From positions 261,474 to 325,473 of the IMG/VR virus record IMGVR_UViG_3300025121_000011: a stretch of 64,000 bases of DNA; one strand, 5' to 3'. Of the stretch, positions 3,143 to 56,723 are shown piece by piece. Under the pieces are notes generated by a model. The model was not told the origin of the DNA. It searched no databases and saw only the letters and a program-made list of their open reading frames with translations. The translations under genes were made by a program, and so were the position numbers. Within the stretch, counting starts at the first letter, position 1. Each line of letters starts with the position of its first letter. The stretch is from a virus.

Positions 3143-3179
3143 TTGGCATGAGACTTGCATTAAGCAAAGGCCATGCCAA
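3143..3179. promoter_or_regulatory. nested-palindrome element (8-bp outer arms TTGGCATG/CATGCCAA)
   Basis: TTGGCATGAGACTTGCATTAAGCAAAGGCCATGCCAA. Confidence 0.55.
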
Positions 3180-3304: not shown

Positions 3305-3793
3305 ATGCGCCCTATCAAGCTTTCTCGAATCGTCATTCGCAGTGCCACCGTCGTTCGCTCTTGGCTTGAACGATGGAACGATTCCGCCCGTTCCATCTGG
3401 GAAGCTCAGGTTCCTGAGGGCCTTCCTCCGCTGGTTGTTTGCGAGGTTACCGTTCCGGGGGCATCGAAGGATGATGCGGAGAACCCCAATAAGGGGAATG
3501 TGGTAATGCTGGTCCCGACGGAAGAAGTGGACGACATGATGGAGGAGTTGCTTTTGCAGGCCAACGAGGGTCGACCGGCCACGGCGGCGGAGGTTGTCCG
3601 GAAGACGGCCACTTGGATCGATATTGGAACCGAAGACGCACCGAATCTGATTTTTTCGTTCAAGGTTTCTGAGGCTCCTGGCAGTCGAACAATCAAGGTT
3701 GCCGAGAGTGATCTTCCCCTGTTCCTTACCGGTCTCAATCTGAGGTTCAAGTCGTTGATTGTCCAGTGGAATGACGCCCATCCGGACAAGTAG
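3305..3793 (+). CDS. hypothetical protein
   Basis: 162-aa ORF after module 3217-3269; terminator hairpin 3815-3843; overlapping minus ORFs look like GC-rich shadow frames. Confidence 0.55.
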   Translation: MRPIKLSRIVIRSATVVRSWLERWNDSARSIWEAQVPEGLPPLVVCEVTVPGASKDDAENPNKGNVVMLVPTEEVDDMMEELLLQANEGRPATAAEVVRKTATWIDIGTEDAPNLIFSFKVSEAPGSRTIKVAESDLPLFLTGLNLRFKSLIVQWNDAHPDK

Positions 3794-3814
3794 AGAAAGA
3801 AAGAAAGAAAGGAG

Positions 3815-3843
3815 GGAAGGGGCGCATGCGCCCCTTCCCTTTA
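3815..3843 (+). terminator. rho-independent terminator
   Basis: GGAAGGGGCGCATGCGCCCCTTCC plus CTTT. Confidence 0.55.
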
Positions 3844-3898
3844 AACCTGTAGAATGAAGGGCGGATATATCCGTCCTTTTCGTGTATCTTTATTTTAG

Positions 3899-3935
3899 TT
3901 GGTATGGTTCTTGCATTAAGCATATATCATGCCAA
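3899..3935. promoter_or_regulatory. nested-palindrome element
   Basis: core variant GCATTAAGCAT. Confidence 0.45.
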
Positions 3936-3967
3936 CGCATATTATGTTAACACATACACATACCCAT

Positions 3968-4020
3968 GGCGGCAAAAGATTTGCAGTATCTCTAAAAAGA
4001 TATCTGCTGTAGTAACTAAG
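3968..4020 (+). promoter_or_regulatory. conserved promoter-like module
   Basis: GGCGGCAAAAGATTTGCAGTATCTCTAAAAAGATATCTGCTGTAGTAACTAAGG. Confidence 0.5.
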
Positions 4021-4043
4021 GGCTGTGAGAAACCACTAACAGA

Positions 4044-4085
4044 GTTACCCAACAGAGTTACCCAACAGAGTTACCCAACAGAGTG
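4044..4085 (+). repeat. 3x tandem 13-bp direct repeat CAGAGTTACCCAA
   Basis: three perfect copies immediately upstream of the acidic-protein gene RBS. Confidence 0.7.
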
Positions 4086-4093
4086 AGGTTCTT

Positions 4094-4318
4094 ATGGCTT
4101 TTTCTTTTGATGAATACAATAATCGTCCTTATACTTTCATCGCGGATCAAGATGAAGTAGATGACGATTGGTCAGACGACGATGATGATTGGAGCGAACC
4201 CTCTGAAAATGATATGTGGGAATCGTTCCCTGATGATGATGACGACTACACGACGAATGACCCTGACAACGACTATTACATAGAACCCGACTACACGGAA
4301 TCCAATAAGGACTACTGA
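4094..4318 (+). CDS. highly acidic small protein (D/E/W-rich), possible DNA-mimic-type protein
   Basis: 74 aa, about 40% Asp/Glu (DDDWSDDDDDWSEPSENDMWESFPDDDDDY); follows module 3968-4020 and a 3x 13-bp tandem repeat. Confidence 0.5.
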   Translation: MAFSFDEYNNRPYTFIADQDEVDDDWSDDDDDWSEPSENDMWESFPDDDDDYTTNDPDNDYYIEPDYTESNKDY

Positions 4319-4770
4319 TAAGGAATACTGAGGGATTGGACATCATTGGAGCGAGATGTCATGATGGTTCGCTCTACCCATGCCCCTTAAGTGGGTGTTA
4401 CCAACAAGGAGTTAGGAATGTATAAGAATAAGAATAAGAATAACTCTGGACGGGATTTATCCTGTTCACCAGCAGGATAAGCTGCTGGGAGCAAAGTAGG
4501 CCGTGAGAGCTTTGGATACCTTCTGTCTGACAGCAGAGGGCAAACGAAAAAGCAAGCCGAAAAGCTTGGTGTGAGGGATGCGAAGACAGAGACCTGTCAG
4601 GTCTGGTCGTTCACCTAAAACCCTCCCTTGGTCCGCCGTGTGTGCAGATTAACTTAAGAATGCGTGTCCGGATACGCAAACTGAGACACTGATGCGCACA
4701 TAGGGTAAGCGGGCCTATTTTAGTAACTAAAACGGAGAAAGTTAAAACAAAAAAGGAAATAAGCGATTCT

Positions 4771-4862
4771 GCCCTGGGTCTGATACAGTGGGGTTCGTCA
4801 CTTAGAAGGTTCATAACCTCTTGGACGACAACGACTGCCAGACCCAGGGCGTTTCATTGTTT
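4771..4862 (+). terminator. long-stem terminator-like hairpin
   Basis: GCCCTGGGTCTG ... CAGACCCAGGGC enclosing about 50 nt, followed by GTTTCATTGTTT. Confidence 0.45.
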
Positions 4863-4872
4863 AAAGATTACT

Positions 4873-4908
4873 TGGCATGAGACTTGCATTAAGCAAATGT
4901 CATGCCAA
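4873..4908. promoter_or_regulatory. nested-palindrome element
   Basis: TTGGCATGAGACTTGCATTAAGCAAATGTCATGCCAA. Confidence 0.55.
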
Positions 4909-4933
4909 CGCACGTATAAGCATTTTATACTCT

Positions 4934-4985
4934 GGCGGCAAAAGAATAACATCATCTTTAAAAATATATTCTTTGTAGTAACTAA
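4934..4985 (+). promoter_or_regulatory. conserved promoter-like module
   Basis: GGCGGCAAAAGAATAACATCATCTTTAAAAATATATTCTTTGTAGTAACTAA. Confidence 0.5.
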
Positions 4986-5004
4986 CATCTGAAAGGAGGC
5001 TGAG

Positions 5005-5877
5005 ATGGCAATGATTTCCAAAGATGAAATGCTTGCGCGAGTAGTTGACCCTATTCTTGAGGCAATGAAAGAGGGAAAGCTGCTATGGCTTCAAGGATGG
5101 AATGTGGGTGCGGGTGCGGGTCTCCCTTATAACCCGACCAAAGCATCTAATAAGCAAGCGTATCGAGGTGCGGTCAATAACATCTTGATGTGGTTTGCGT
5201 CCGCTGCTAATGGTTGGGGCGACCCTCGTTGGATGGGTTTTGCTCAAGCGAAAACAAAAGGATGGCGAGTTCGGAAGGGGGAGGAGTCGACCCAAATCTA
5301 TGCTCCAATCATGGGTTCGTATCCGATTGAAGAGAACGGCCAAAAGGTTTGGAGAAAATATGTCAAGGGCTTCAACCCTGTTCATGTTTTCAATGCCCAA
5401 CAGGTGGATGGAATCCCCGCGATTGAAAAGGCTGGAACCTTGGATGTCTCCACCGGATATGCTGCCGCAGAGGACATGTATAAGGCTATGAACGTGCAAA
5501 CGATTCATGGCGGTAATGTGGCTGCATATGCATATCAGGTTGACATCATTAGGATGCCGGAACCAGAAATGTTTGTGGGCGCAGATGAATACCACGCTAC
5601 GCGCTTGCATGAAATGGGGCATGCGACGGGGCACCCGTCTCGCATGGATAGAAGGATGTTCGGAACAGGGTTACAGGATTACGCTCAGGAAGAGCTTGTA
5701 GCGGAGTTGTTTGCTGCTTTCGCATGTGCAGACATTGGCGTATCCAAAGCTGAAATGACGCAGAATCATGCAGCATACCTCAAAAGCTGGCATGAGCGTC
5801 TAAGCAGGGAACCAAAAGCATTCATAGATGCCGTATCGGCAGCATGGGAAGCTTTTGAGTTTGTTCGAAAACTGTGA
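5005..5877 (+). CDS. ardC: ArdC-like antirestriction protein (ArdC N-domain plus zincin HExxH domain)
   Basis: N-terminal PYNPTKASNKQAYRGAVNNILMW matches the ArdC-N pattern (P.N..TG..YRG.N...L); C-terminal HEMGHATGH zinc-metalloprotease motif. Confidence 0.7.
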   Translation: MAMISKDEMLARVVDPILEAMKEGKLLWLQGWNVGAGAGLPYNPTKASNKQAYRGAVNNILMWFASAANGWGDPRWMGFAQAKTKGWRVRKGEESTQIYAPIMGSYPIEENGQKVWRKYVKGFNPVHVFNAQQVDGIPAIEKAGTLDVSTGYAAAEDMYKAMNVQTIHGGNVAAYAYQVDIIRMPEPEMFVGADEYHATRLHEMGHATGHPSRMDRRMFGTGLQDYAQEELVAELFAAFACADIGVSKAEMTQNHAAYLKSWHERLSREPKAFIDAVSAAWEAFEFVRKL

Positions 5878-6043
5878 TAGAGATTAATCTGGCAAAGAAG
5901 AGACAAGCGAAGAAGCTTGTTTCTTGCGTGAGATATTTGCATATGCACGCTTTGGAGTTGGTTCTTTTGTTTTTGGTGATAATTGTTTCGATACTGTTTG
6001 TTATCACCAGTTTTTAATAAAATAACGAGGTGCAGGGTTTGAG

Positions 6044-6080
6044 TTGGCACAGTTTTTGCTTAATGCAGTTATCGTGCCAA
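6044..6080. promoter_or_regulatory. nested-palindrome element (inverted core)
   Basis: TTGGCACAGTTTTTGCTTAATGCAGTTATCGTGCCAA; identical copies at 6662 and 7707. Confidence 0.55.
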
Positions 6081-6172
6081 TGCATACACACTAGTTTACT
6101 CTAAACTAGTTTACTCTAAAAAGATATCCTCTGGAGTAACTAATGATTGTAATCCGCTAAGGAGGTGTTTTA

Positions 6173-6607
6173 ATGGCAAAGTTTCTGATCGACTTCCGTG
6201 ATCCACCGAACTCCCTGGTCAAGTGTGTCAAGGCTCTTAAGAAGATTTCCGGAATGAGTTATAGGAGAGCAAAGGACGCCGCGATACTTACTGATCCGAT
6301 CGTTGTGGAGATTCCGATGTTCTCCGAGAACAACGAAATCTCCCAAGGGATGATTAGGACTTGGTTTGCAGAGGAAATCGGTTGGACTATCATGGTTGGA
6401 AGTCCCAAAATGCTTCCCGACCGAACAGGACTCTTCACAATGCACTTTCGGAACGGATCCCGGATGGATTCGGTAAGGATTGAAGTGTTCGAGTTGGTGA
6501 ACGATGGTAGTAGACCTGAGATTGATCGTTATTTCTTTTCCTATAAGGGAGATAGCCGTATGCAGAGCTTTTACAGCACGACCGATGACCACTATCTGAC
6601 GGATTGA
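6173..6607 (+). CDS. hypothetical protein
   Basis: 144-aa ATG ORF, SD AAGGAGG, module upstream, terminator 6616-6650. Confidence 0.55.
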   Translation: MAKFLIDFRDPPNSLVKCVKALKKISGMSYRRAKDAAILTDPIVVEIPMFSENNEISQGMIRTWFAEEIGWTIMVGSPKMLPDRTGLFTMHFRNGSRMDSVRIEVFELVNDGSRPEIDRYFFSYKGDSRMQSFYSTTDDHYLTD

Positions 6608-14119: not shown

Positions 14120-14178
14120 GGCGGCAAAAACTTAACTGCATCTCTAAAAAAATATTCTACATAGTAATATAGGGCTGT
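14120..14178 (+). promoter_or_regulatory. conserved promoter-like module heading a 940-nt ORF-free transcript
   Basis: GGCGGCAAAAACTTAACTGCATCTCTAAAAAAATATTCTACATAGTAATATAGGG. Confidence 0.5.
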
Positions 14179-15118
14179 GAGAGGAGCTAACTTGAAGGGC
14201 TAAAGAGTTTGTGGTGATGATAGTGTTAGTTGAGTTAACTTCTTTCACAGGACCTGGAGACTTCTCGGAAATATTTAAGATGGTATCATAACCGACTGGC
14301 AGGGAGCCGCACGGCAACAAAGGGCGTTCACCTTAGGGTGGGGGTCTGCCAAAATGATCAAGCCAAGCCTTGCAGGTAGGAGTGACCGGCGAAACTCCCG
14401 TAACCTGAGTAGGAGAATGGCAAGACGTGAGGGACATGCAGTCGACCCTTAGGGATACGATAATCCCCATTTTTTAACATCGTTACAAATAAGTGTTTAT
14501 TGAGTTTCACCAGTATCTCGGATAAAGGCGATGTTAAAGTTAAAACTGGTACTTGTTCTTAGCGGATCCCCGGCTCCGCGTTTGCCCAGAGGAAAGCCGA
14601 GAGACGTATAGTTTCTAACGGGTAGGCAGCATCGCAAGAGTGCCTGATAAAAAGAGGTTATCGGTGGTTGGCTTAGAGGCAGCCATCCTTAATGAGTGAG
14701 ACGATTGCCCCAAGGCGCAAAATGTCGGTAAGTGGTAACAGCTATGCCGATGATGTACCGGGGATAAACAGGGAAAGTGAAAGGCACCCCGTAACTGGTA
14801 AGGCCAATCTTCTCTTCAGCGTAATAGCACGCCGATATAATCTCTTTTAGGTAGGTCCACATGGAATAGCCAAGCGCTATGGGATCGAATATTATCGCAT
14901 TTGGGAATGGTACTCTCCCGCTGGTTGTACCACCTTCTTAAGCGTCAGACATTTACAATGCATAATGCCGGTTAATTTTGCCGGTTAAAGTTGTGAATGT
15001 AGAAAACACTTGTATATATAAGAACACAAGCAGTGACGTAAGTCTGTGATGATTCTATGCAGACACTCTATCATAAATTATAAAAGATGCGCAGCTTTAA
15101 AGCTGCGCATCTTCATTT
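14179..15118 (+). ncRNA. candidate ~940-nt non-coding RNA (promoter module to terminator, no ORF of 60 aa or more on either strand)
   Basis: module 14120-14178 immediately upstream; strong terminator at the end; GC-rich with many stem-forming segments. Confidence 0.45.
15083..15118 (+). terminator. rho-independent terminator ending the 14179-15118 ORF-free transcript
   Basis: AGATGCGCAGCTTTAAAGCTGCGCATCT plus TCATTT. Confidence 0.6.
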
Positions 15119-33769: not shown

Positions 33770-34130
33770 GTTTTACCTATTCCAACTGAATTGCGAGAGC
33801 GAAAAAGAGTGGATTGATTTTTATTATGGTTTATCAGTCCTCCTTCATATTTAGTTATATAATTGCTTATACGGTTGTTTTAGATGTTTTGTCTATATTT
33901 AAATAGCAATATACAAAAGATATACGTCTAAGAAAAGTTTGAATTAAGTAAAAATATTTAGATAGCGATAAAATTCAGTATCTGTTGAGTTTGTTAGAGA
34001 AATTTATACACAAATTGATGAAGTTAATATCATTGGGTATTATTCTTCTTATGATGTTATTCATGTTGATGTTAACCGATGAACAGAAGAAATCGGTGAT
34101 ATATAATATGGATGCAATTGGAGGTTGGAA

Positions 34131-34631
34131 ATGATCTCATCAAGAGATTTGATTCTTTTTATTAATCCTCCAAAATATTTATCCGTATTGATTGCTTATA
34201 CAGTTGCCGCAGATGTTCTGCCTATATTTGAAAAGCATTTTCCGAAGGATTTGAGACCGAGAAAAGCTGTTGAAGCGTCTAAGATGTATTTGGATGGATA
34301 TGCGGTTGATGCTGCTGCTTATGTTGATGCTCCTTCTGCTCATTATGCTCCTTCTGCTCATTATGCTGCTGTTGCTGTTAATGCTGCTGATGCTTATGCT
34401 GCTGCTAATGCTGCTGCTAATGCTGTTTATTTTACGGCCAAAGATTCTTCCGAAGAACACATCTTTAACCTAATTTTATCTCTGCTTCCTCAGATGATCG
34501 ATTATGCTGTTGAAAATCAAGTTAAGTTATTCACCGGGTCTGGAGACTTCTCAGAAATATTTGAGATGTTAACCGATGAACAGAAGAAGCTGGTGATATA
34601 CAATATGGATGTAATTGGGAATTGGAAATGA
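34131..34631 (+). CDS. tandem-array protein 1: conserved N/C domains with hypervariable Ala/Tyr/Asn-rich core
   Basis: ATG 34131 (SD GGAGG); ends about 90% identical at DNA level to copies 2 and 3; core built of GCT-rich degenerate repeats. Confidence 0.6.
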   Translation: MISSRDLILFINPPKYLSVLIAYTVAADVLPIFEKHFPKDLRPRKAVEASKMYLDGYAVDAAAYVDAPSAHYAPSAHYAAVAVNAADAYAAANAAANAVYFTAKDSSEEHIFNLILSLLPQMIDYAVENQVKLFTGSGDFSEIFEMLTDEQKKLVIYNMDVIGNWK

Positions 34632-35185
34632 TTTCATCAAAAGATTTGGTTTTATTCATTAATCCTCCTAAATATTTATCCGTATTGATTGCTTATACAG
34701 TTGCCGCAGATGTTCTGCCTATATTTGAAAAGCATTTTCCGAAGGATTTGAGACCGAGAAAAGCTGTTGAAGCGTCTAAGATGTATTTGGATGGATATGC
34801 GGTTGATTCTGCTACCGCTGTTAATGCTGCTAATGCTGCTGCTAATGCTGCTTATGCTGCTGTTAATACTGCTGCTAATGCTGCTGCTAATGCTGCTGCT
34901 TATGCTGCTGCTTATGCTGCTGCTTATGCTGTTTATTATGTTGATGCTACTGATGTTGCTGCTAATGCTGCTTATGCTGCTTGTTATGCAGCCAAAGCCT
35001 CTTCCGAAGAACACATCTTTAATCTTATTCTATCTCTGCTTCCTCAGATGATCAATTATGCTGTTGAAAATCAAATCAAGTTGTTCACCGGACCTGGAGA
35101 TTTCTCAGAGATATTTGAGATGTTAACCGATGAACAGAAGAAGCTGGTGATATACAATATGGATGTAATTGGGAATTGGAAATGA
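34628..35185 (+). CDS. tandem-array protein 2 (hypervariable core)
   Basis: ATGA start/stop overlap with copy 1; core differs in length and sequence. Confidence 0.6.
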   Translation: MISSKDLVLFINPPKYLSVLIAYTVAADVLPIFEKHFPKDLRPRKAVEASKMYLDGYAVDSATAVNAANAAANAAYAAVNTAANAAANAAAYAAAYAAAYAVYYVDATDVAANAAYAACYAAKASSEEHIFNLILSLLPQMINYAVENQIKLFTGPGDFSEIFEMLTDEQKKLVIYNMDVIGNWK

Positions 35186-35691
35186 TTTCATCAAAAGATT
35201 TGGTTTTATTCATTAATCCTCCTAAATATTTATCTGTATTGATTGCTTATACAGTTGCCGCAGATGTTCTGCCTATATTTGAAGAGAAGTATCCGAAGGA
35301 TTTAAGACCGAGAAAAGCTGTTGAAGTTGCTAAGATGTATTTGGAAGGATATGCTGCTGATGCTTATGATGCTGCTATTTATTATGTTACTGATGCTGCT
35401 TATGCTATTGATGCCACTGTTTATGCTGCTAATGCTGCTTATTATGCTGCTTATGCTGCTTATGCTGTTACTTATAATTCTGATGCTGCCTATGCCGCTT
35501 ATTATGCAGCTAAAGCTTCTTCCGAAGAACACATCTTCAACCTGATTTTATCTCTGCTTCCTCAGATGATCAATTATGCTGTTGAAAATCAAATTAAGTT
35601 ATTCACAGGACCCGGAGATTTCTCAGGAATATTTGAGATGTTAACCGATGAACAGAAGAAGCTGGTGATATTCAATATGGATGTAATTTAA
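35182..35691 (+). CDS. tandem-array protein 3 (hypervariable core)
   Basis: ATGA overlap with copy 2; same conserved ends. Confidence 0.6.
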   Translation: MISSKDLVLFINPPKYLSVLIAYTVAADVLPIFEEKYPKDLRPRKAVEVAKMYLEGYAADAYDAAIYYVTDAAYAIDATVYAANAAYYAAYAAYAVTYNSDAAYAAYYAAKASSEEHIFNLILSLLPQMINYAVENQIKLFTGPGDFSGIFEMLTDEQKKLVIFNMDVI

Positions 35692-36724: not shown

Positions 36725-37813
36725 ATGCGATTTATTCATTTTCCAAAAATTGGTCAATTCAAGGATGCTATTCATTCGATTCGTCAACGAGGCGCTTATG
36801 TAGGTAGAGATGTTAATGGCGATATTATTTATGATAGTTCTATTTTGATGCCAAAAATTACATTCATTGGTTCTGTTAAAATGCATGGTACTAATTCTGC
36901 TGTATCTTTTCATCGTATGGAAGGAGTGAGGCAGGCTCAATCTAGGAATAAGATTTTATCTATAGAATCAGATAACAATGGATTTTGTAGATTTACAGAG
37001 TCTATTCCCGAAGATGTTTGGGATTTTCTTTTTAATTCTCTATTATCTCCACTAATTACTGAGCCATATCTTTTTGGACGAGTAACGGTTTTTGGAGAAT
37101 GGATTGGTCCCGGTGTTCAGGGTGGTGAAATTGGTATTAAATATCTTCCGAATAAAATCTTTGTAGTGTTCGGAGTATATGTTGGGGAGCGTGATGAATT
37201 AGAAGATAAAACTCCCACCGGATACTTTGTTCCTCTTTGTGATATTCCATCTTTCAATGATGAATCTTATCATCTGAATGATAATAGAATTTATTTAATT
37301 ACTGATTTAGCTCCAACTTTCAAAATAGAAGTCGATTGTAATTATCCAGAAATTTCTAGGAATAAGTTGGTCGAATTAACTATGCAAGTTGAAGCTAAGT
37401 GCCCAGTCGCCAATTACTTTGGAATTGAAGGAACGGGAGAGGGCATCGTATGGTGCTCAATTACGGAAGGGTGGATGGGTCCAGATTTTTGGTTTAAGAC
37501 CAAGGGAGAAAAGCATTCCGCTTCAAAGATAAAAAAGATAGCCGAAGTAGATGTAACAAAGGTAGAGGGAGTAATTGCGTTTTTAGAAGAGACTCTAACT
37601 GAAGTTAGATTGAATCAAGCTTTGGAATACTTAAAAGAAAAAGAGATGCCTATCGATCGAAGTAGCACAGGCGAGTTTGTTCGGTGGATGATCAATGACG
37701 TTACTACTGAAGAGGCTATAATGATGGAAGCCTCAGGACTTACAGTAAAAGAAGTTGGTCCCAAATTAGGCACAGCCGCCAGGCAGTGGTTTTTTAATCA
37801 ACTTAATAAGTAG
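36725..37813 (+). CDS. ATP-dependent RNA ligase, Rnl2-like
   Basis: motif I KMHGTN (T4 Rnl2 KIHGTN), motif IV GEGIVW, motif V FWFKTKG. Confidence 0.7.
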   Translation: MRFIHFPKIGQFKDAIHSIRQRGAYVGRDVNGDIIYDSSILMPKITFIGSVKMHGTNSAVSFHRMEGVRQAQSRNKILSIESDNNGFCRFTESIPEDVWDFLFNSLLSPLITEPYLFGRVTVFGEWIGPGVQGGEIGIKYLPNKIFVVFGVYVGERDELEDKTPTGYFVPLCDIPSFNDESYHLNDNRIYLITDLAPTFKIEVDCNYPEISRNKLVELTMQVEAKCPVANYFGIEGTGEGIVWCSITEGWMGPDFWFKTKGEKHSASKIKKIAEVDVTKVEGVIAFLEETLTEVRLNQALEYLKEKEMPIDRSSTGEFVRWMINDVTTEEAIMMEASGLTVKEVGPKLGTAARQWFFNQLNK

Positions 37814-37816
37814 GAG

Positions 37817-38062
37817 ATGTCCATGTCTTTTACATTTGTTAATGTACTTTTCATTCTCTTTATTTATATGATAGTTTTTGGTTATCCACTTCGTGGTATA
37901 ATTTTATTATTTTTATGGATAATAGATTGTTTTCCAGAAACAAAACATGATCGTTTGTTAATAATTTCTTCATGTATACTTCCAGTATTTGGAGAGTGTG
38001 TGGTTCTTTGGTTCTTAATTAAGCAAATGATTAAGTGGATAAAGGAGGGAAAAGGTGATTAA
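37817..38062 (+). CDS. small membrane protein
   Basis: two hydrophobic helices; SD TAGGAG. Confidence 0.4.
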   Translation: MSMSFTFVNVLFILFIYMIVFGYPLRGIILLFLWIIDCFPETKHDRLLIISSCILPVFGECVVLWFLIKQMIKWIKEGKGD

Positions 38063-38381
38063 AATTAACGGTAAAACATTTTTTACAACTAATATTTCAA
38101 ATGTTTCTATTCGTAATAATGAAATATATATCGACGGAAAGTTGGTAGGCGATAGTAAAGATGCAGAACAGGGTATTCTTACTGTCAAGATTGAGGGTAA
38201 TTTGGTTAGCTTAATTTGTGATGCAACAGTAGAAGTAACAGGCAATGTAAATGGTAGCATTAGCGCTGGTAACTCTGTTTACTGTGGTAATGTTAATGGA
38301 AATGTTAATTGTGGAAATTCTGCTCATTGTAATAATATTGAAGGCAATGTAACTGCTGGAAATTCGGTTCATAAATTATAA
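38055..38381 (+). CDS. protein with Gly-Asn repeat motifs (GNVNGS / GNSVxCGN repeats)
   Basis: GTG start with SD AAAGGAGGG; terminator 38499-38522 downstream. Confidence 0.45.
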   Translation: MIKINGKTFFTTNISNVSIRNNEIYIDGKLVGDSKDAEQGILTVKIEGNLVSLICDATVEVTGNVNGSISAGNSVYCGNVNGNVNCGNSAHCNNIEGNVTAGNSVHKL

Positions 38382-38498
38382 AGAATTGATTCTTGTAATA
38401 AAATTTATGTAGTCGAAAAGATTATTATCTTAGAAAAAAAAGTATCAAGATAATGTATCGATATAAAGCCACGGGATTGCTTTGATTTAGCGTAAGGA

Positions 38499-38522
38499 TG
38501 GCGGACTCAGGTCCGCTATTTG
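38499..38522 (+). terminator. rho-independent terminator
   Basis: GGCGGACTCAGGTCCGCT plus ATTTGG. Confidence 0.45.
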
Positions 38523-38547
38523 GCGCATTGGTTGTCATGGATTAATA

Positions 38548-38578
38548 GAGGTGATAATTGTATAATAAAAGTTTTATT
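38548..38578 (+). promoter_or_regulatory. sigma70-like promoter with extended -10 (TGTATAAT)
   Basis: TTGTATAAT about 100 nt upstream of the Hen1-like gene. Confidence 0.35.
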
Positions 38579-38676
38579 GATCTTAGTAAAGATAAGTCAA
38601 TGAATTGTAGCTAAGGTTTTATTATTTTGATTCGAAAATCGATTGTTCAATACTCAGGATAGAAAGGGAAATAATA

Positions 38677-40038
38677 ATGATTATACGATTTACATCGACC
38701 AATCCAAACGCACTTGATATTCTTAAAAAGAATCCAGAAAGTTTTTCAGGTATTCAATTGAGAAGTCATAAAAATGGTGTGGCTATAGGTAGGATTATTT
38801 CCGCAAAGATTCCTATTGAATATCATATGATCTTTCAAGATACTAAATATAGTTACTCTCAGGATTCCTCTAATCAGATTGATTTTCAAAGTTATTGCAA
38901 TCCTCGTGCAGCACTTGGTTTAATTGGAGAGTTACTCCGGCACGTATTAGTATCAGATCAAGATTGGCGGGATACAGATATTCCATGGCTTAACTCTACA
39001 ATTGGAGAAGTTGATACAAGAGACTTTAACCACACTATTATAGTAGATAATTTATATGCAGATGGTTTTAACTTAGATGGAGGGCTGGTTTTAGAAAAGT
39101 ATTTTAAGGAGATTTCTCTAAAAAGAAATGGTCAGAATCAGTTTGAGCTAAAGATAGATGTCTGTCGAGATACAATACATTATACCATTAATTTATTGGC
39201 TTTTGTATGTATGTATTTGGCGGCAACTAATAAACAGCCTTGGTATCTTAACCGAGATATAGCATCAAAATACATTAGAGTTTTAGAAAATATTGGTGAC
39301 GTGCCATATTTTATTTTATATCTTTTTGCCCGTTCCTGTCTTCCATCGGAAGAATTATTTAATGAATTCGCTCCTCGATTGGAGAATATTTTTTACAGCT
39401 ATGATGATCGAGCAAATGATCTAACTATGGTATATGGAAATACTCAATCAATGAGATTGCGAAGTATTTCTGATTTGCTTTTAACTAATGATAAAATTTT
39501 TTCTAACATTATAGAAATTGGTTGTGGCGATGGAGATTATCCTCGCCGATTAGCAAAGAAGTTGAATAATGGATTAAGTTGGTGGTCATATGATATTGAA
39601 GATCATAGTTATCTTAATCGTAAAATTCCAGAAATGATGGGAAAATTAGCAACATTTAAATTTACTCAAGAGTGGGATCAAATTCCTTTATTGGATAACC
39701 CTATAGTATTGTTAGTAGAAGTAATTGAGCATATGTCGGTTGAAGAAGCGATAGAATTAATCTGTCGAATTTTAGATAAGCACTCTCCGACACAATTAAT
39801 TATTACTACTCCAAATAGGACATTTAATAATTATTATCGGTTTGATCCCGAAGATGATGGATTTAGACACAGCGATCACAATTTTGAAATGACTCAGGAG
39901 CAATTTAAAGAATATATTCTTAGTATCATTAAATTGCTCCCATATGATGCATCCTTTTTCGGAATTGGTGATCGAATTGATGCAGATTATACTACTCAAG
40001 GAGTGGTATTAACTCGTAAAGATCCTGGGTCAAGCTAA
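38677..40038 (+). CDS. hen1: Hen1-like RNA 3'-terminal 2'-O-methyltransferase (bacterial Hen1 architecture)
   Basis: 453 aa; C-terminal SAM motif I IEIGCGDG, metal-binding EVIEH (ExxEH) and H 46-49 aa downstream as in Hen1 methyltransferases; N-terminal ~270 aa non-MTase domain; extended -10 promoter upstream. Confidence 0.6.
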   Translation: MIIRFTSTNPNALDILKKNPESFSGIQLRSHKNGVAIGRIISAKIPIEYHMIFQDTKYSYSQDSSNQIDFQSYCNPRAALGLIGELLRHVLVSDQDWRDTDIPWLNSTIGEVDTRDFNHTIIVDNLYADGFNLDGGLVLEKYFKEISLKRNGQNQFELKIDVCRDTIHYTINLLAFVCMYLAATNKQPWYLNRDIASKYIRVLENIGDVPYFILYLFARSCLPSEELFNEFAPRLENIFYSYDDRANDLTMVYGNTQSMRLRSISDLLLTNDKIFSNIIEIGCGDGDYPRRLAKKLNNGLSWWSYDIEDHSYLNRKIPEMMGKLATFKFTQEWDQIPLLDNPIVLLVEVIEHMSVEEAIELICRILDKHSPTQLIITTPNRTFNNYYRFDPEDDGFRHSDHNFEMTQEQFKEYILSIIKLLPYDASFFGIGDRIDADYTTQGVVLTRKDPGSS

Positions 40039-40496
40039 TGTGGGGCATTAGTCGTAAAGATTCTAGCCCATGTAATGTAGTACCACCACTTTTTATTAAA
40101 TATTTAGATTATTTAGTGAGAGATGGACAATTATATTATATGAAGAGAAATTCTATAAGTCCATCTGTAATGATTCCAGATTCAGCTTACAGTTGGGGCT
40201 GGGATAATGCCGGGAATTATGGATTTGTTTGGCGCGGACCTAATGCCTATGAAGGGAATTTGCCATCCGATTTAGCTGGAATATTTCCACTGTGGGATAT
40301 AATTTGGTCTTTTGCTTATCGTTATGAAAGACATCTTGTAGCAGAACAGAATTGGAATGCAACTCAAAGAGAATACTTTTATATCCTTCCTGATAGATTT
40401 TTGGAATTAGAAGAAATAAGAGAGTTATGCGAACAAAATCTTTGGGTTGAGGCCGCTTCTTTATATGAGGTTAAGAAAAAAATATGGTGCGATTAA
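40038..40496 (+). CDS. hypothetical protein
   Basis: coupled to the Hen1-like gene (stop/start overlap). Confidence 0.5.
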   Translation: MWGISRKDSSPCNVVPPLFIKYLDYLVRDGQLYYMKRNSISPSVMIPDSAYSWGWDNAGNYGFVWRGPNAYEGNLPSDLAGIFPLWDIIWSFAYRYERHLVAEQNWNATQREYFYILPDRFLELEEIRELCEQNLWVEAASLYEVKKKIWCD

Positions 40497-40684
40497 CTTT
40501 GAAATTTCCAAATATTACTGCTGATATTTTAGAGGAAAAGTTAAAGGATGCTGTTGAAAAATTTACATTATCCGCAGAGTATTCTGATGGCGAAGTAATC
40601 ATTATTGGATCAAAAGAGGCAATTCATATAATTCAAAAGGCATATAAAATACAACAGATGCTTTCATCTATGACAGTCAATTAG
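40484..40684 (+). CDS. hypothetical small protein
   Basis: 66-aa ORF in the operon. Confidence 0.35.
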   Translation: MVRLTLKFPNITADILEEKLKDAVEKFTLSAEYSDGEVIIIGSKEAIHIIQKAYKIQQMLSSMTVN

Positions 40685-40694
40685 TGAGGCTTGC

Positions 40695-41105
40695 ATGTCT
40701 GATTATGAGTTTGAATCAAATAGTTTGTTAAATGCTCTTCAACACATTGATTGGGATAAGTTAGTTCTTAATAAAAATTCAGGTATGGCACGTTTGCTTA
40801 CTGGAAGAGATGATTCTATTCCACTTAATAAAATACAAGTGAAGATTGTGTATTCAGATTATAATCCGGTTGGATGGGCTTGGGTTTTTCCATATATTGA
40901 TTATGATGGCCGTCGGCGCCTCGGATTTATGATTTTTATTCAAAGAGAATATCGTCGCAAAGGCTTGGGATCTAAATTGTTAGATTGGGGTCGAAACATT
41001 GCACGTCAAAAGCACATTAAATTTATTGTATATCCATGGGATAAAAAAGGACATTTGTTTTTTGAATCAGCCGGAATAACAAGTAGAAACAAAGGGGACT
41101 GGTAA
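40695..41105 (+). CDS. GNAT-family N-acetyltransferase
   Basis: QREYRRKGLGSKLLDW matches the GNAT motif A (Q/RxxGxG/A). Confidence 0.55.
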   Translation: MSDYEFESNSLLNALQHIDWDKLVLNKNSGMARLLTGRDDSIPLNKIQVKIVYSDYNPVGWAWVFPYIDYDGRRRLGFMIFIQREYRRKGLGSKLLDWGRNIARQKHIKFIVYPWDKKGHLFFESAGITSRNKGDW

Positions 41106-42331
41106 TGGGTAAACGATATTTAACTGAAAAAGAAGAGGGGCGTATTCGTCGAGCTATTAAGCAGAAGATTCAGTTTTTTTCGCCTACTATCTCTCCAGCT
41201 CCAAAAGATATGACTCGTAGAGAGATTGAAAGCATTCGTTCTGCAATCATGATTTATCATGAAGCTGGTATGAAAGGTGTTGTTATTCAACCAAAGTATA
41301 TGGGTTCTTATTGTGATATTTATTTGCATCGAGATCTTGATAAGACTAAATTTTATTCTCGTCGTGGTTATGAAGTTAGACTTGATTTTGAAATCTTGAT
41401 TCAAGCAGTTAAATATTTGCATAATAAGTTTTTTTCCGATGAGTGTGAAATTAATTTTAAAGATGCAGAATTAATCATTATTCAATCCGAGCTTATGCCT
41501 TGGCATGCTTTAGGTGGAGGATTAATTGAGCGAGATTTTGGAGGGTATGAAATCTCTCACCGTATTCACCAAAGGTATTTTGCATCTACTGGCATTAAAA
41601 AAGATGTAGAGTCTTTAACAGAAGATCCGATTTATCGTCAATTTTTAGAAGATAAGTGTGTTATGGATCGTAAGACACTTCTTAAAAAGTATCCAATGCA
41701 TATTGCTTCTCAATATGAAGCTTTAGAAGCTCTTGCTTTTCCAGATGTAGAACAGTATCTTCAAGATATTGAAGTTTATTCCGAACAGCTTTCTCTATAT
41801 GGTTCGGCAGGAGAATTGCATTTTAAACCTTTTAATATTTTAAAGATTGTATATTGTGATGGGCGGGAGGTAATTCCTGGTGATCATAAATTTGGATTTT
41901 TATCAGTGAGATTAAATCAAGAAGAAAATCCAATGTTTGAAATCGATTTCTCAACACCAGAATTGGATAAACAAATCGATTTAGCTTATAAATTCTTTAA
42001 TACATTAACTGATGATAAAAAGATGGAGGGAGTAATTATCAAGCCGATTGGGATATGGAATCCTGATGTTGCACCAATGTTTAAGGTTCGAAATAATAAT
42101 TACTTACAAATGATTTATGGTGTCAATTTTCAGCGTGAGTATGATTATTATCTTAATAAACGAAGCATTGGTGGAAAAGTAAGGGCTTCTAAAAACCAAT
42201 GGAATATTGCACAAGAAATTATTAAAATTCCTATGACGGAAATTAGTGATGACAATGTTAATTACACCAAATTAATTCGTGGTAGAATTTATGAAGAAGA
42301 TTATGAGAGGTTGTTAGATTCTAGATTATAA
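41105..42331 (+). CDS. nucleotidyltransferase-superfamily polynucleotide ligase-like protein (second RNA/DNA ligase)
   Basis: QPKYMGS (KxxG motif-I-like), EGVIIKP (motif IV), MFKVRN (motif V). Confidence 0.5.
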   Translation: MGKRYLTEKEEGRIRRAIKQKIQFFSPTISPAPKDMTRREIESIRSAIMIYHEAGMKGVVIQPKYMGSYCDIYLHRDLDKTKFYSRRGYEVRLDFEILIQAVKYLHNKFFSDECEINFKDAELIIIQSELMPWHALGGGLIERDFGGYEISHRIHQRYFASTGIKKDVESLTEDPIYRQFLEDKCVMDRKTLLKKYPMHIASQYEALEALAFPDVEQYLQDIEVYSEQLSLYGSAGELHFKPFNILKIVYCDGREVIPGDHKFGFLSVRLNQEENPMFEIDFSTPELDKQIDLAYKFFNTLTDDKKMEGVIIKPIGIWNPDVAPMFKVRNNNYLQMIYGVNFQREYDYYLNKRSIGGKVRASKNQWNIAQEIIKIPMTEISDDNVNYTKLIRGRIYEEDYERLLDSRL

Positions 42332-47881: not shown

Positions 47882-49057
47882 ATGACTACATCACTTGAAG
47901 ATCTTACCACTGCATTACCAACTTTATATGCTTTAGACAGCAGCGGACGTATCAAGGTCTGGTCCGTTAGCATATGCATACATTTGGATCAATCCGCTAC
48001 ATATACAGTAATTCACGGGCTTTTAGATGGAAAGAAACAGAGAAGCCCGCGCAAAATTACCAGCGGGAAAAATATTGGGAAAGCTAATGAAACTTCCCCA
48101 TATGCTCAAGCGTTATCAGAAGCTCAAAGCAAATGGAAAAAACAGATTGACAAGGGATATGTAGAAGATGTGAATAACATTCCTGTCTGCACAGAGGTAG
48201 AATATTTTCTTCCGATGCTTGCTCAAAAATATACTGAGCGTAGTAAGCACATGAAATATCCTGCGTATGTGCAGCCAAAGTTCGATGGTTATCGAGCACT
48301 TAGTCGAAGAATCGGTAAGCAAGTTGTTCTATGGTCTAGAACCGGGAAGCCATTTTTTACCCTGGATATTATCGTTTCTGAATTAGAATCGATAATAAGT
48401 TCAAATGAATGTTTAGATGGGGAAGTTTATAGGCATGACTGGAGAAGTCCATCTAATGAGCCCGACTTTCAAAGAGTTTCTTCGGCAATTAAAAAGAGAA
48501 AGGCAGATACAGATTTGTTAGAATATCATGTTTATGATCGTCCAATTCCAGAGAAGCCTGAAGCCTCATTCTATGAGCGGTTTTATAAACCAGCGTTCAT
48601 TGACGGCACTTTAGTTGGCAGTGACCATGTTAAAATTGTCCCCACTGCATTGGTGGCATCAGAAGAAGAAATGATGCTTCTTTTTAATCAATGGGTCAGT
48701 GAAGACCTTCCGTATGAAGGTGCTATCGTTAGAAATGCTTCTGGTGTATATGGATTTGACACCAGAAGCAATGATCTTCTGAAGGTAAAGGATTTTCAAG
48801 AAGAAGAGTATGAAATCATTGGAGCTAAAGAAGGTACCGGAAAAGACGAGGGTACTGCAATCTTCTTATGTAAGATGAAGGATGGTACAGAATTTGATAG
48901 TCGTCCGGTAGGCTCTTATGAGCAGAGAGCAGAATATTTAACTAACATTAGTAAATATATAGGCAGATATCTTCGGGTAAGATTTAATGGTCTGTCTAAT
49001 CTTGGGGTTCCACGCTTTAATCGTGGCGTAGGTATCAGAGAAGAATGGGATATGTAA
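47882..49057 (+). CDS. ATP-dependent DNA ligase
   Basis: motif I KFDGYRAL (KxDGxR), motif IV EGAIVR, motif V DLLKVK. Confidence 0.75.
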   Translation: MTTSLEDLTTALPTLYALDSSGRIKVWSVSICIHLDQSATYTVIHGLLDGKKQRSPRKITSGKNIGKANETSPYAQALSEAQSKWKKQIDKGYVEDVNNIPVCTEVEYFLPMLAQKYTERSKHMKYPAYVQPKFDGYRALSRRIGKQVVLWSRTGKPFFTLDIIVSELESIISSNECLDGEVYRHDWRSPSNEPDFQRVSSAIKKRKADTDLLEYHVYDRPIPEKPEASFYERFYKPAFIDGTLVGSDHVKIVPTALVASEEEMMLLFNQWVSEDLPYEGAIVRNASGVYGFDTRSNDLLKVKDFQEEEYEIIGAKEGTGKDEGTAIFLCKMKDGTEFDSRPVGSYEQRAEYLTNISKYIGRYLRVRFNGLSNLGVPRFNRGVGIREEWDM

Positions 49058-54037: not shown

Positions 54038-54114
54038 AGGGCCATAACTCAATTGGTTAGAGTGTCGCTCTCATAAAGCGAATGTTCTGAGTTCGAGTCT
54101 CAGTGGCCCTACCA
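54038..54114 (+). tRNA. tRNA with CAT anticodon (initiator/elongator Met or Ile2 lysidine-type), CCA encoded
   Basis: acceptor AGGGCCA/TGGCCCT, D-arm ACTCAATTGGTTAGAGT, anticodon loop CTCATAA, T-arm CTGAG-TTCGAGT-CTCAG, ACCA. Confidence 0.7.
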
Positions 54115-54261
54115 TTTTAATCTTAAATAATAAAGCCTTGTTGAGTCGCTAAAATCTGGGTTGGCTTCCCAGCTTCCCAGCTCCTCGCTCTGGAGTAGGT
54201 ACGAGTCAAAGAGAATGCCTGCCCGGGTTTCCCCCGGCTGGGAGCCGGATTAAGTTCTCAT

Positions 54262-54350
54262 AGTAGTGTGATGGTCCTATTCACTACATTCCTGGAACAA
54301 ATAGTTTAATTGGGAGAACATTGACGAAAGGTGTGGGTTCGAGTCCTGCT
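54262..54350 (+). ncRNA. tRNA-like element lacking a canonical anticodon arm (Y-RNA-like / tRNA-mimic candidate), preceded by hairpin GTAGTG...CACTAC
   Basis: D-arm-like GTTTAATTGGGAGAAC and T-arm GTGGG-TTCGAGT-CCTGC only 13 nt apart; similar in architecture to the 54605 element. Confidence 0.35.
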
Positions 54351-54389
54351 TTGATTTTTTATATTAATCTTAAAATCGCGAGGAGTAAT

Positions 54390-54602
54390 ATGACTGTATT
54401 TCTTGTTGTAAAAGATTACAATCGTGAGTGTCCAAAGGACATAATTATGTCAGCCTTTTATAATAAAGAGGATGCCAAGACTTTTATGAAAAATACTTTT
54501 GAAGAGATATGTAATTGTCCTGATCGGCAGACTGATGAAGATGAATTGGGATGTTTCAGATGTTGCTTGTGGATTGGTATTGATTCGATAGAGGTAAAAT
54601 AA
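54390..54602 (+). CDS. hypothetical small Cys-containing protein
   Basis: ATG 54390 with SD GAGGAG; track start 54321 lies inside the tRNA-like element. Confidence 0.35.
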   Translation: MTVFLVVKDYNRECPKDIIMSAFYNKEDAKTFMKNTFEEICNCPDRQTDEDELGCFRCCLWIGIDSIEVK

Positions 54603-54604
54603 CA

Positions 54605-54690
54605 TAGTGATCATCCTATTCATTACATATTAATGGGCCAAATAGTTCAAGTGGGAGAATATCGTCGCGAGAAGATGTAGGTTCAAATCC
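54605..54690 (+). ncRNA. tRNA-like element lacking a canonical anticodon arm (second copy)
   Basis: D-arm-like GTTCAAGTGGGAGAAT and T-arm GTAGG-TTCAAAT-CCTAC 15 nt apart; similar upstream hairpin. Confidence 0.35.
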
Positions 54691-54814
54691 TACTTTGAGC
54701 CCCCAATTTCATATTCATAGTTTGGGTACATTCAGCATAAATTTTTTTTACCATATAAAAACAAATCGTACCCAGTGATTTAATCCTGGCTTTTGCCATT
54801 TAATGAGGTGTTTA

Positions 54815-55030
54815 ATGTGGAAGAATATTTTGGTTATGCTAATGCTTATGGGTTGCCCTACTGTTGAATCAGTTTCTGATGATGCAGCAGTAGTGGATGA
54901 TGCAGTAGTAGTTGAGACTCCGGTAGTTCAGTCTGATGCAGCAGTTGATGCGACTGTTACTACTCCGGTAGTTGATGAAAATGATGTTACTGCTGATGTT
55001 GTAGAAAATGTTCCAGTTGCAACTGAGTAA
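54815..55030 (+). CDS. small secreted/lipoprotein-like acidic repeat protein
   Basis: signal peptide ending GCP; Val/Asp/Ala-rich repeats. Confidence 0.35.
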   Translation: MWKNILVMLMLMGCPTVESVSDDAAVVDDAVVVETPVVQSDAAVDATVTTPVVDENDVTADVVENVPVATE

Positions 55031-55196
55031 ATAGGGAATAGGCATCACGGTCGCCTTTAAGTACGCCGTCATAGGTAAGTTTAGTTTTGGGTTGATAACT
55101 ATATTTAAGCAAACCTTAAACAGTTCATAATTTTAAGAAGAGATTTCTTATTATTCACAAATGAATGAGCCAATGATTGTGTCAGTTGGCATCGGT

Positions 55197-55279
55197 GCGG
55201 AGTATACAAGTGGTCAAAGTAGAGGCGCTCATAACGCTTTGCTATAGCTTCATGGGTTCGAATCCCATTTCCGCTCCCA
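55197..55279 (+). tRNA. tRNA-like with CAT anticodon (second CAT tRNA; acceptor stem imperfect)
   Basis: anticodon arm AGGCG-CTCATAA-CGCTT, T-arm ATGGG-TTCGAAT-CCCAT, 3' TTTCCGC t CCA; acceptor pairs 6 of 7. Confidence 0.5.
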
Positions 55280-55289
55280 ATGCTTGCAC

Positions 55290-55673
55290 GAATATAGGTT
55301 CCGGTCGAAACACCTACAAAGTTTCGTAAAATCCTGTGAGTTTAGCCATCTGTAACCAACCAGGTCGGGTCAGGATTAAGCAACCGCAAGCGGGTCATGC
55401 TAATATATTCTCATAACCTTTAGAAGTAGGATCGGAAAGAAATCCGGTAGGCAAGGTCGACTTACCCTGGTAAACTTCTTAAAGTGCTGCACTGGAATAA
55501 AAAGCATACAGTTGGGTGATTGTCCTAGTCCCAACATCTTTAAGCCTTAACAGTTGGAGTTCTGTTTTTCATGAGTAAGCAGTGTCGGAGATTTAATTTA
55601 TTAAATCAATGACTAGGCTGAAAGTCGCTTTGCTGAATTTGATGATGCTTGTGTCAAAAGTATCTGATCTGAA
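55290..55673 (+). ncRNA. structured RNA candidate with group-I-intron-like conserved elements
   Basis: no ORF; AAATCCGGTAGGCAAGGTC (55439-55457) resembles the group I Q element AAUCCGCAGCCAAGUCC; TCAATGACTAGGCTGAAAGTC resembles the R/P7 region. Confidence 0.3.
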
Positions 55674-55775
55674 AGCTTCAGACTTGATTGAATGCGAAAG
55701 TCATGGTTCTTAATTGACACTCCCCATGACAGTTAGTAAATCCAAGAGACGGTTAGGTTCGAATCCTAGGAGGCT
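55674..55775 (+). ncRNA. expanded tRNA-like element (acceptor AAGCTTC/GAGGCTT, T-arm TTAGG-TTCGAAT-CCTAG, internal 7-bp hairpin)
   Basis: 7-bp acceptor complementarity and canonical T-loop but about 102 nt long with no D-arm or anticodon arm. Confidence 0.3.
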
Positions 55776-55782
55776 TATTATT

Positions 55783-56130
55783 ATGAAAAAGCAAAAGGGT
55801 TGGATTATTATTGGTTTAAAACGAAACGGAGATTATGTTGGTTACATTGAAAATTCTTTTTCAATGGGACGCAGTTTAGAACGGGTTTTAGTTTTTCGTC
55901 CAAATCCTCTTTCTGAAAAAGAACATCCAAATAAGAGTGCTGTAGATAATGCTCGTTCACATTTAGCAAAACTTCAGGCTCTTGATGACCACACTGAGTG
56001 GTGGTTGTATCGAGTTGGTTCTTGTACTTGTCCCGTCAAAATTGATTGGGGTTCTTTATACGAAGAATATCGAGGAAGTACAAGAGTAAGTAATTTTAAC
56101 TGGAGAAATCTTAAATTCAGTCGGAAATAG
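55783..56130 (+). CDS. hypothetical protein
   Basis: SD TAGGAGG then ATG 55783. Confidence 0.4.
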   Translation: MKKQKGWIIIGLKRNGDYVGYIENSFSMGRSLERVLVFRPNPLSEKEHPNKSAVDNARSHLAKLQALDDHTEWWLYRVGSCTCPVKIDWGSLYEEYRGSTRVSNFNWRNLKFSRK

Positions 56131-56162
56131 AAGTATATTATTTGTTACCTGAGGGGATTTAA

Positions 56163-56393
56163 ATGTCTGTGCCGAATGTAATTCAAAAGGCTTTTGATCT
56201 TGATGAGAGGATTATTGCCGTGGCTTGGGATAAGATTGAGCCAGTGCTGATTTTATCTAAACCATGGCTCGAAAGTGCCGAAGAGGAGATGGTTCAAGAA
56301 GAGTTTTTAAGGCAAAGTGAAACATATCTATTATTTGATGAACTATGGCGATTTTTTGAAGATTGTGAATCAACTAGATATGATAGAGAATAG
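56163..56393 (+). CDS. hypothetical small acidic protein
   Basis: SD GAGGGGA. Confidence 0.35.
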   Translation: MSVPNVIQKAFDLDERIIAVAWDKIEPVLILSKPWLESAEEEMVQEEFLRQSETYLLFDELWRFFEDCESTRYDRE

Positions 56394-56405
56394 TTTTTGT
56401 TTTGA

Positions 56406-56560
56406 TGCCATGTAGCAAAGTAGGTAAATGCAAGTGTGGACTAAGCCAATATGGATGGTCTTGTAATCGAGAGAACAAGTTCCGGGATCATGGTGAAACC
56501 CATTGTTATTATTTAGCCCGACGAATAATGACGCGCTGGTTCGAGTCCAGCCATGGCAAC
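56406..56560 (+). ncRNA. tRNA-like element with a ~100-nt expanded central region (perfect 7-bp acceptor TGCCATG/CATGGCA)
   Basis: D-arm GCAAAGTAGGTAAATGC, T-arm GCTGG-TTCGAGT-CCAGC, acceptor 7/7, no canonical anticodon arm. Confidence 0.4.
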
Positions 56561-56568
56561 TATTTTTT

Positions 56569-56681
56569 GCGGAATAGTGTAGTAGGGAGCACGCGTATAA
56601 TGTATCTTGATAAAGATGTATACAGCAATCAAACAAATCCATTGGGTGGACGAAGTATAGGTTCGAGTCCTATTTCTGCAA
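56569..56681 (+). ncRNA. tRNA-like element with expanded central region (acceptor TGCGGAA/TTCTGCA)
   Basis: D-arm GTGTAGTAGGGAGCAC, T-arm ATAGG-TTCGAGT-CCTAT, acceptor 7/7 with one G-U; 113 nt. Confidence 0.4.
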
Positions 56682-56723
56682 CTATTTGAGAAGACATAAC
56701 ACTTAACAAAAGGAGATAATTAA

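Follow-up and report, generated by a model that had tools for sequence, protein, structure and literature searches.

A highly acidic, likely disordered protein encoded in an early cassette next to ArdC of a huge phage, and a leader repeat that looks like a slippage product

The window analysed here (the whole 64-kb stretch of viral DNA, 64 000 nucleotides) has all of its genes on the + strand. Over its first ∼24 kb, ∼24 single-gene cassettes follow one another, each with a copy of a conserved promoter/leader module, and one of these cassettes contains an ORF for a highly acidic protein of 74 amino acids. The acidic gene has the full cassette set, i.e. an upstream terminator, a pair of sigma54-like boxes, the module, a Shine-Dalgarno sequence and the ORF (Table 1), and this early-gene cassette anatomy around 4094-4318 is well supported. 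The 74-aa protein is found with 100% identity on 15-23 metagenome contigs (the named samples are groundwater), and because two of these contigs have 305 742 and 352 464 bp, the window is a piece of a huge phage (305-352 kb).

The gene following the acidic ORF encodes ArdC (matches: ArdcN, 5e-20; MPTase-PolyVal, 9e-33; PHROG 7245 'anti-restriction protein', 3e-63). Its start lies 687 nt beyond the stop codon of the acidic ORF, in line with an earlier note on this DNA, which had placed an ArdC-like gene about 700 nt downstream. ArdC has already been described in huge phages (bioRxiv 10.1101/2025.02.27.640493). Homologues at 49-61% identity are encoded on contigs with a GC content of 0.50-0.59, hereafter the relatives, and these contigs also share the element GGCGGCAAAA, the sigma54-like box and homologues of the window genes at 1041-1724 and 3305-3793. 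The early region around the acidic gene and ArdC is otherwise without annotation; Pfam searches with ten further early ORFs gave nothing useful, and megablast of 3800-5900 against plasmid and phage collections found nothing.

The module is ∼55 nt long and occurs in ∼24 copies between 143 and 21118, all on the + strand and nearly each ahead of a small ORF, with the consensus GGCGGCAAAAG, N11-14, CTCTAAAAAnATAT, N5-7, AGTAAcTAAGG. The module probably comprises a phage-specific early promoter and a conserved start of the leader. An exact scan of IMG/VR for the module pattern found nothing; the element GGCGGCAAAA recurs in the relatives L008-L015, L099 and L100, as does a TAAAA(A/T) box. GGCGGCAAAA is often doubled around the sigma54-like box (10821/10906, 18268/18359 and 23446/23515 in the window), and such pairs are seen in L009 and L011 too. 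Two stretches with modules, 2558-2830 and 14120-14400, have no convincing ORF within ∼250 nt downstream, and their modules may drive further non-coding RNAs.

The sigma54-like pattern TGGCAYN5TTGCW has 33 matches in the window versus 4.0 expected in shuffles. At ∼16 intergenic sites within 1-24 kb, ahead of modules, the boxes are paired with a 19-nt offset, and each pair forms a ∼37-bp palindrome, TTGGCAC..TTGCnTAAnGCA..GTGCCAA; the pairs range from 420 to 23430 (e.g. 3144-3178, 3900-3934, 4873-4907 and 6045-6079). Among related contigs, such boxes are found in L011 (641, 1226 and 1754; in + orientation only) and in L094 (∼11150), a 395-kb IMG/VR contig. For a huge phage, it would be unusual to have sigma54-type promoters throughout its early region. 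At the other end of the acidic cassette there is no strong hairpin within 100 nt after the stop codon of the ORF (z = +0.5), and no promoter module lies between 4318 and 4873; the long hairpin listed in Table 1, together with the UUUCAUUGUUU that follows it, probably marks the 3' terminus of the acidic gene's transcription unit.

Table 1. Features of the acidic-gene cassette and its surroundings, and acidic proteins encoded directly upstream of ArdC in relatives (positions refer to the window unless a contig is named)
Feature	Position	Strand	Details
Terminator-like GC hairpin closing the upstream cassette (gene 3305-3793)	3811-3842	+	-27.6 kcal/mol, z = -5.3; also found by terminator scan
Sigma54-like -24/-12 boxes, face-to-face pair	3900-3934	+ and -	TGGTATGGTTCTTGCA on +, TGGCATGATATATGCT on -
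Promoter/leader module of the acidic gene	3968-4022	+	GGCGGCAAAAG 3968-3978, N11, CTCTAAAAAGATAT 3990-4003, N5, GTAGTAACTAAGGG 4009-4022
13-bp tandem repeat	4038-4084	+	unit CAGAGTTACCCAA, 3.6 identical copies; in the 5' leader
Shine-Dalgarno sequence GAGG	4085-4088	+	5 nt before the ATG at 4094; directly 3' of the partial fourth repeat copy; read from the sequence
Acidic ORF	4094-4318	+	74-aa acidic, aromatic-rich protein; ORFan; predicted disordered
Second 13-nt tandem duplication	4305-4331	+	2.1 copies, 92%; spans the stop codon of the acidic ORF
Candidate conserved structured RNA	∼4380-4640	+	alignment and covariation
Long terminator-like hairpin	4770-4851	+	-49.8 kcal/mol, z = -6.6; followed by UUUCAUUGUUU
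ArdC	5005-5877	+	ssDNA-binding N-domain and zincin metallopeptidase; own promoter module region 4873-4990 (module 4934-4990)
L011 acidic protein			73 aa; 31% D/E; C-terminus ..GDW
L009 acidic protein	L009 525-800		91 aa; 25% D/E
L014 acidic protein	L014 3289-3600		103 aa; 27% D/E
L015 acidic protein	L015 3274-3630		118 aa; 29% D/E
L099 acidic protein	L099 3137-3484		115 aa; 36% D/E, net charge -37; C-terminus ..DDNW
L100 acidic protein	L100 1402-1698		98 aa; 26% D/E

The GC content of the window steps at ∼24 000, from 0.45-0.48 in the cassette region (1-24 kb) to 0.33-0.39 in the rest, which suggests that the early region is a compositionally distinct early/accessory module. The right two-thirds of the window (GC ∼0.35) encode Hen1/Pnkp-type RNA repair, RNA and DNA ligases, TROVE/DUF2828, several tRNAs and a HisA-HisIE fusion. 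The RNA-repair/tRNA cluster (36725-42331, 47882-49057, 58709-60160 and 54038-57320) includes an RNA ligase, a Hen1 N-domain, a Pnkp-type ligase, a DNA ligase and a TROVE/DUF2828 (Ro-like) protein, and several tRNA-like matches were obtained by Rfam, not by ARAGORN, two of them unusually long (56568-56681 and 57231-57320). The fusion (415 aa, 62515-63762) joins a HisA-like domain (His_biosynth) with PRA-CH and PRA-PH and is a possible auxiliary metabolic gene; a weak SAICAR-synthetase-like ORF precedes it. Degenerate TGCTGC-type repeats (periods 9, 12 and 18) extend over 34300-35500 across three consecutive ORFs on the + strand (34125-35691), indicating low-complexity repetitive proteins. In the early region, an 81-aa protein (2191-2436, + strand) matches the C-terminal domain of ribosomal protein L7/L12 (Pfam, 4e-9); the gene is longer in relatives (e.g. 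L100 744-1211), and some relatives have an RF-1/peptidyl-tRNA-hydrolase-like gene near ArdC (L014 6180-6518, L015 6292-6627 and L099 6074-6412). These L7/L12-like and RF-1-like genes are hints of a manipulation of translation.

The acidic protein (MAFSFDEYNNRPYTFIADQDEVDDDWSDDDDDWSEPSENDMWESFPDDDDDYTTNDPDNDYYIEPDYTESNKDY) contains 22 Asp and 7 Glu (39.2% D/E) and is the most acidic among the window ORFs of at least 50 aa, so that the earlier note was right in its estimate of ∼40% Asp/Glu, as it was about the interspersed Trp and Tyr: there are 14 aromatic residues (3 W, 7 Y and 4 F), runs of D are broken by W/Y/F every 5-10 residues, and the protein ends in ..NKDY. It was mistaken in finding no basic residues, as the protein has one Arg (R11) and one Lys (K72), residues 12-71 being devoid of K, R and H. 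With 29 D/E versus 2 K/R the net charge is about -27. Leu is absent, and A, I, V, L and M together make up only seven of the 74 residues (9.5% aliphatic), leaving no plausible hydrophobic core. Structure prediction had been proposed as a check for charge mimicry of B-DNA, and it returned no fold: AlphaFold2, run on the single sequence (a mode that often fails on genuine folds), gave a pLDDT of 57.5, a pTM of 0.12 and no secondary structure (no DSSP elements). The charge-hydropathy plot places the protein far on the disordered side (H = 0.305 versus a boundary of 0.544), and eight out of eight neighbouring proteins on the folded side. From the AlphaFold2 and charge-hydropathy values, a rigid mimic of the Ocr/ArdA type is therefore unlikely, and the protein is likely an intrinsically disordered polyanion.

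Searches of families and structures gave no match for this protein: neither Pfam nor PHROG has a matching family at E≤0.1, and PDB has no matching chain at E≤10. A word-indexed search of 5.8 billion clusters and an exhaustive phmmer search of 1.84 billion representatives returned only the protein itself, which is thus an ORFan among these representatives and clusters.

The 13-bp repeats lie between the module and the ribosome-binding site, as the earlier note had said. Its triple perfect repeat is also confirmed, with exact copies of CAGAGTTACCCAA at 4040-4052, 4053-4065 and 4066-4078; the array, however, begins at 4038/4040 rather than at 4044 (TRF: 4038-4084, period 13, 3.6 copies, 100% matches, score 94), and a partial fourth copy, CAGAGT, continues into the Shine-Dalgarno sequence. 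The repeat is inserted into the leader of a cassette that is standard in other respects. Module core and start codon are 104 nt apart here versus mostly 45-71 nt in the other cassettes, and the excess is exactly 39 nt, i.e. three repeat units. We rejected an N-terminal extension of the acidic ORF in frame through the repeat, because a TAA occupies 4037-4039 and neither ATG nor GTG nor TTG occurs from there to 4094.

The copies had been read as possible operator sites for dedicated regulation of the gene, and a functional role as binding sites (operators on the DNA, or sites of RNA-protein or RNA-RNA contact) could be argued from the identity of the 3.6 copies, from their placement where a roadblock or a translational repressor could act, and from a related motif, GTGTTACCAACAAGG, at 4395-4410 of what is predicted to be the same transcript. 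But the repeat sits 3' of the conserved promoter core and the -10-like box, within the predicted transcribed leader; it is unique in the window (allowing up to two mismatches, the only other match to CAGAGTTACCCAA in the 64 kb is a chance-level one at 20536); and neither a tandem repeat nor the GTTACCC core is found in the leaders of the seven positional counterparts in relatives, an absence that the earlier note had named as grounds for refutation. An operator role is therefore unsupported, and by that measure it is refuted to the extent that sequence alone can show. The unit also lacks dyad symmetry, its 13-bp period does not keep step with the helical turn of DNA and sets successive sites ∼85 degrees apart, and the leader RNA has no significant structure at the repeat (z = +0.58). 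Gene-specific regulation through the 13-mers thus seems to us improbable.

The repeat looks like a recent slippage product. Its architecture is AACAGAGT-TACCC-AACAGAGT, with two 8-nt direct repeats between which replication slippage would have expanded the 13-mer recently in the 5' untranslated leader, and perfect identity of the copies is what very recent slippage is expected to produce. In seven out of seven independent metagenome copies of the locus, the bases around the repeat are identical. Other small perfect or near-perfect duplications are found nearby, at 4305-4331 (13 nt × 2.1), 4422-4443 and 6090-6120 (15 nt × 2.1). The last of these, a perfect duplication of ACTAGTTTACTCTAA, stands in for GGCGGCAAAAG in the module before the gene at 6173-6607, so that small slippage duplications arise inside promoter modules too. 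At most, the 13-bp repeat would lengthen an unstructured, C/A-rich leader, and from the absence of conservation we infer that it is neutral.

Downstream of the acidic ORF we observed a candidate for a new structured RNA conserved among related huge phages (Table 1). The window sequence aligns with L011 1455-1660, L009 1030-1235 and L094 10770-10975 (70% column identity), and from only these four sequences RNAalifold gives 35 predicted pairs, of which 13 carry compensatory changes; the single-sequence fold of 4380-4640 has z = -2.5. Rfam has no family for this RNA, even when permissive E-values are used instead of the gathering thresholds. Within it lies a mini-ORF (4418-4480, 20 codons, MYKNKNKNNSGRDLSCSPAG). 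Each of the four sequences has a short ORF whose TAA stop codon is placed in the loop of the hairpin with the best support, and a pseudoknot may form through GGUG/CACC and GAGGG/CCCUC. The counterparts in L011 and L009 are non-coding and lie upstream of ArdC, the L011 copy having a promoter module of its own; the L094 copy is not adjacent to ArdC. Four further contig matches to the motif were rejected as chance matches in coding DNA. In the window, the transcript of the acidic gene probably runs through this RNA to the hairpin at 4770-4851.

The RNA is a separate lead, and it also offers a competing rationale for the existence of the transcription unit. The acidic ORF is of low complexity, with GAT/GAC runs, a type of sequence that gives open frames by chance. 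It could be that the ORF is not functionally translated, that the unit makes the RNA, and that the acidic frame is a by-product of GAT/GAC expansion: no promoter or terminator separates ORF and RNA in the window, the RNA is conserved with covariation while the acidic ORF is without any homologue, and the locus is rich in slippage repeats. Yet the GAGG with its 5-nt spacer and the ATG are at the usual cassette position once the repeat is subtracted, acidic ORFs are found at the matching position in seven out of 10 loci, and in L011 the acidic ORF and the RNA are separate units, each with its own module and hairpin. We regard this RNA-only explanation as unlikely.

In the relatives, the slot of the acidic gene is often filled by a gene of the same kind. 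In seven out of 10 loci of the ArdC clade, ArdC is directly preceded by a gene for a small acidic protein (25-39% D/E), namely in the window, L011, L009, L014, L015, L099 and L100. Of the remaining three, L008 has an 82-aa acidic gene one position farther upstream, and L101 and L102 have no acidic gene upstream of ArdC. A non-coding RNA region separates the acidic gene from ArdC in the window, L011 and L009.

The proteins of L009, L014, L015, L099 and L100, with two more clusters, make up a family that we call A8 (P0043-P0049; 91-118 aa). It is rare (a profile search found seven clusters in 5.8 billion, the 74-aa protein not among them), and in the five loci its genes are always directly upstream of ArdC. 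The AlphaFold2 model of A8 has a beta3-alpha N-domain (∼70 aa, with the motif TVxVxxxGxxFTGT) at a pLDDT of 82-89 and an acidic/aromatic tail at a pLDDT below 50; when this model was compared with PDB and BFVD by Foldseek, nothing matched at E≤0.001. The window protein is like A8 in its genomic slot, its type of cassette and the style of the disordered acidic/aromatic tail (e.g. DYSEWSDEDDDNW versus DDDWSDDDDDWSE), but it has neither the beta3-alpha N-domain nor the motif, and it gives no significant alignment with A8 (hhalign probability 0.6%). Nor do the acidic proteins of the window, L011 and L008 have a significant BLASTP or profile match to A8 or to each other; what these three share with A8 is only composition, aromatic punctuation and position. 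The positional analogy could therefore be a coincidence, or a common descent blurred beyond recognition.

The nearest precedent in function is a segment of SPO1 Gp44, a 27-kDa protein that has a C-terminal domain and, at its N-terminus, a folded domain that binds DNA. Residues 56-122 of Gp44 (57% D/E, no basic residues) are disordered and ssDNA-like, and they bind RNAP beta/beta' (PMC8208478). That segment and the window protein are both early, D/E-rich, nearly without basic residues and disordered (by prediction for the window protein), and both are proposed as flexible nucleic-acid mimics. Unlike Gp44, the window protein is only 74 aa long and consists of the acidic segment, with no further domain and no sequence homology, and it has 39% rather than 57% D/E and is rich in W/Y/F. 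Another comparison is with the acidic tails of proteins that bind DNA. In SSB and T7 gp2.5, an acidic-aromatic C-terminal tail competes with ssDNA for the OB-fold cleft. The C-terminal tail of SSB (SSB-Ct) ends in ..DDDIPF (PMC7913777). In these tails, as in the window protein and the proteins of L011 and L099, runs of D are ended or interrupted by aromatics; the motifs are not identical, though, and the tails belong to DNA-binding proteins while the window protein is free-standing.

We tentatively suggest, by analogy with such segments, that the early acidic protein is a flexible, tail-only polyanionic mimic or decoy of nucleic acids, a reading that we favour with low confidence. ORF 4094-4318 would then be a genuine early gene of a huge phage, expressed from one of ∼24 near-identical single-gene cassettes, and its disordered product would fill basic, aromatic-stacking nucleic-acid-binding clefts of host proteins. 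Candidate targets would be restriction or defence sensors, nucleoid proteins, RNA polymerase and possibly the ssDNA-binding domain of the neighbouring ArdC. Next to the A8 family, with its folded N-domain and disordered acidic/aromatic tail, the window protein would be a 'tail-only' counterpart. The proposal of the earlier note, a DNA-mimic anti-defence protein, thus survives in modified form, as a disordered decoy: an acidic early gene next to ArdC, with acidic genes recurring in relatives, has stood up, and a folded mimic with homology to a known family has not.

That original proposal, a folded B-DNA mimic of the Ocr/ArdA/Arn type that blocks type I R-M or BREX, draws on real likenesses, as Ocr (T7 gp0.3), ArdA and Arn are also small, strongly acidic and made early on entry, and the D/E content, the net charge, the early-cassette position and the anti-restriction context given by the ArdC neighbour all fit. 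Those proteins, however, are rigid folds that imitate bent B-DNA, whereas the window protein has no predicted fold and, in the Pfam, PHROG and PDB searches, resembles neither Ocr or ArdA nor other DNA mimics, and both its AlphaFold2 values and its lack of Leu and low share of aliphatic residues, with its place on the charge-hydropathy plot, speak against one; we consider such a folded mimic very unlikely. A role tied to ArdC itself has a different basis. The ArdC N-domain binds ssDNA non-specifically (PMC7213743), so the acidic protein could be a dedicated partner, placing an ssDNA-like tail in that domain and gating or chaperoning the protease, or bridging it to DNA-binding substrates, and the acidic gene does stay next to ArdC in the seven loci while the homologues of 1041-1724 and 3305-3793 move between relatives. 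But acidic gene and ArdC are separate cassettes with their own promoters in every locus, the acidic gene is missing from L101 and L102 and is separated from ArdC by another gene in L008, plasmid ArdC works without such a partner, and the adjacency may be merely inherited, which together leave a dedicated partnership distinctly unlikely. A broader version would make free-standing disordered acidic-aromatic polypeptides a recurrent, fast-evolving class of huge-phage early proteins acting with ArdC, the window gene being a minimal tail-only form that is co-transcribed with the new structured RNA behind sigma54-type boxes; as ssDNA surrogates, these proteins would load or gate the ssDNA-binding domain of ArdC, or steer the protease onto host DNA-binding defence proteins. 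This we mention as a speculation with little probability.

As the finding stands, an acidic protein and an apparently role-less repeat are of modest importance, and the ∼24 cassettes with one shared module, sigma54-like box pairs and a structured RNA are perhaps a more valuable lead for the biology of huge phages. If the disordered decoy is real, DNA mimicry by phages against their hosts would not be limited to rigid folds like that of Ocr but would include minimal polyanionic peptides, which are invisible to homology searches. Such peptides could then be sought by a simple rule: small proteins with at least 25% D/E, punctuated by aromatics and encoded next to ArdC in early cassettes.
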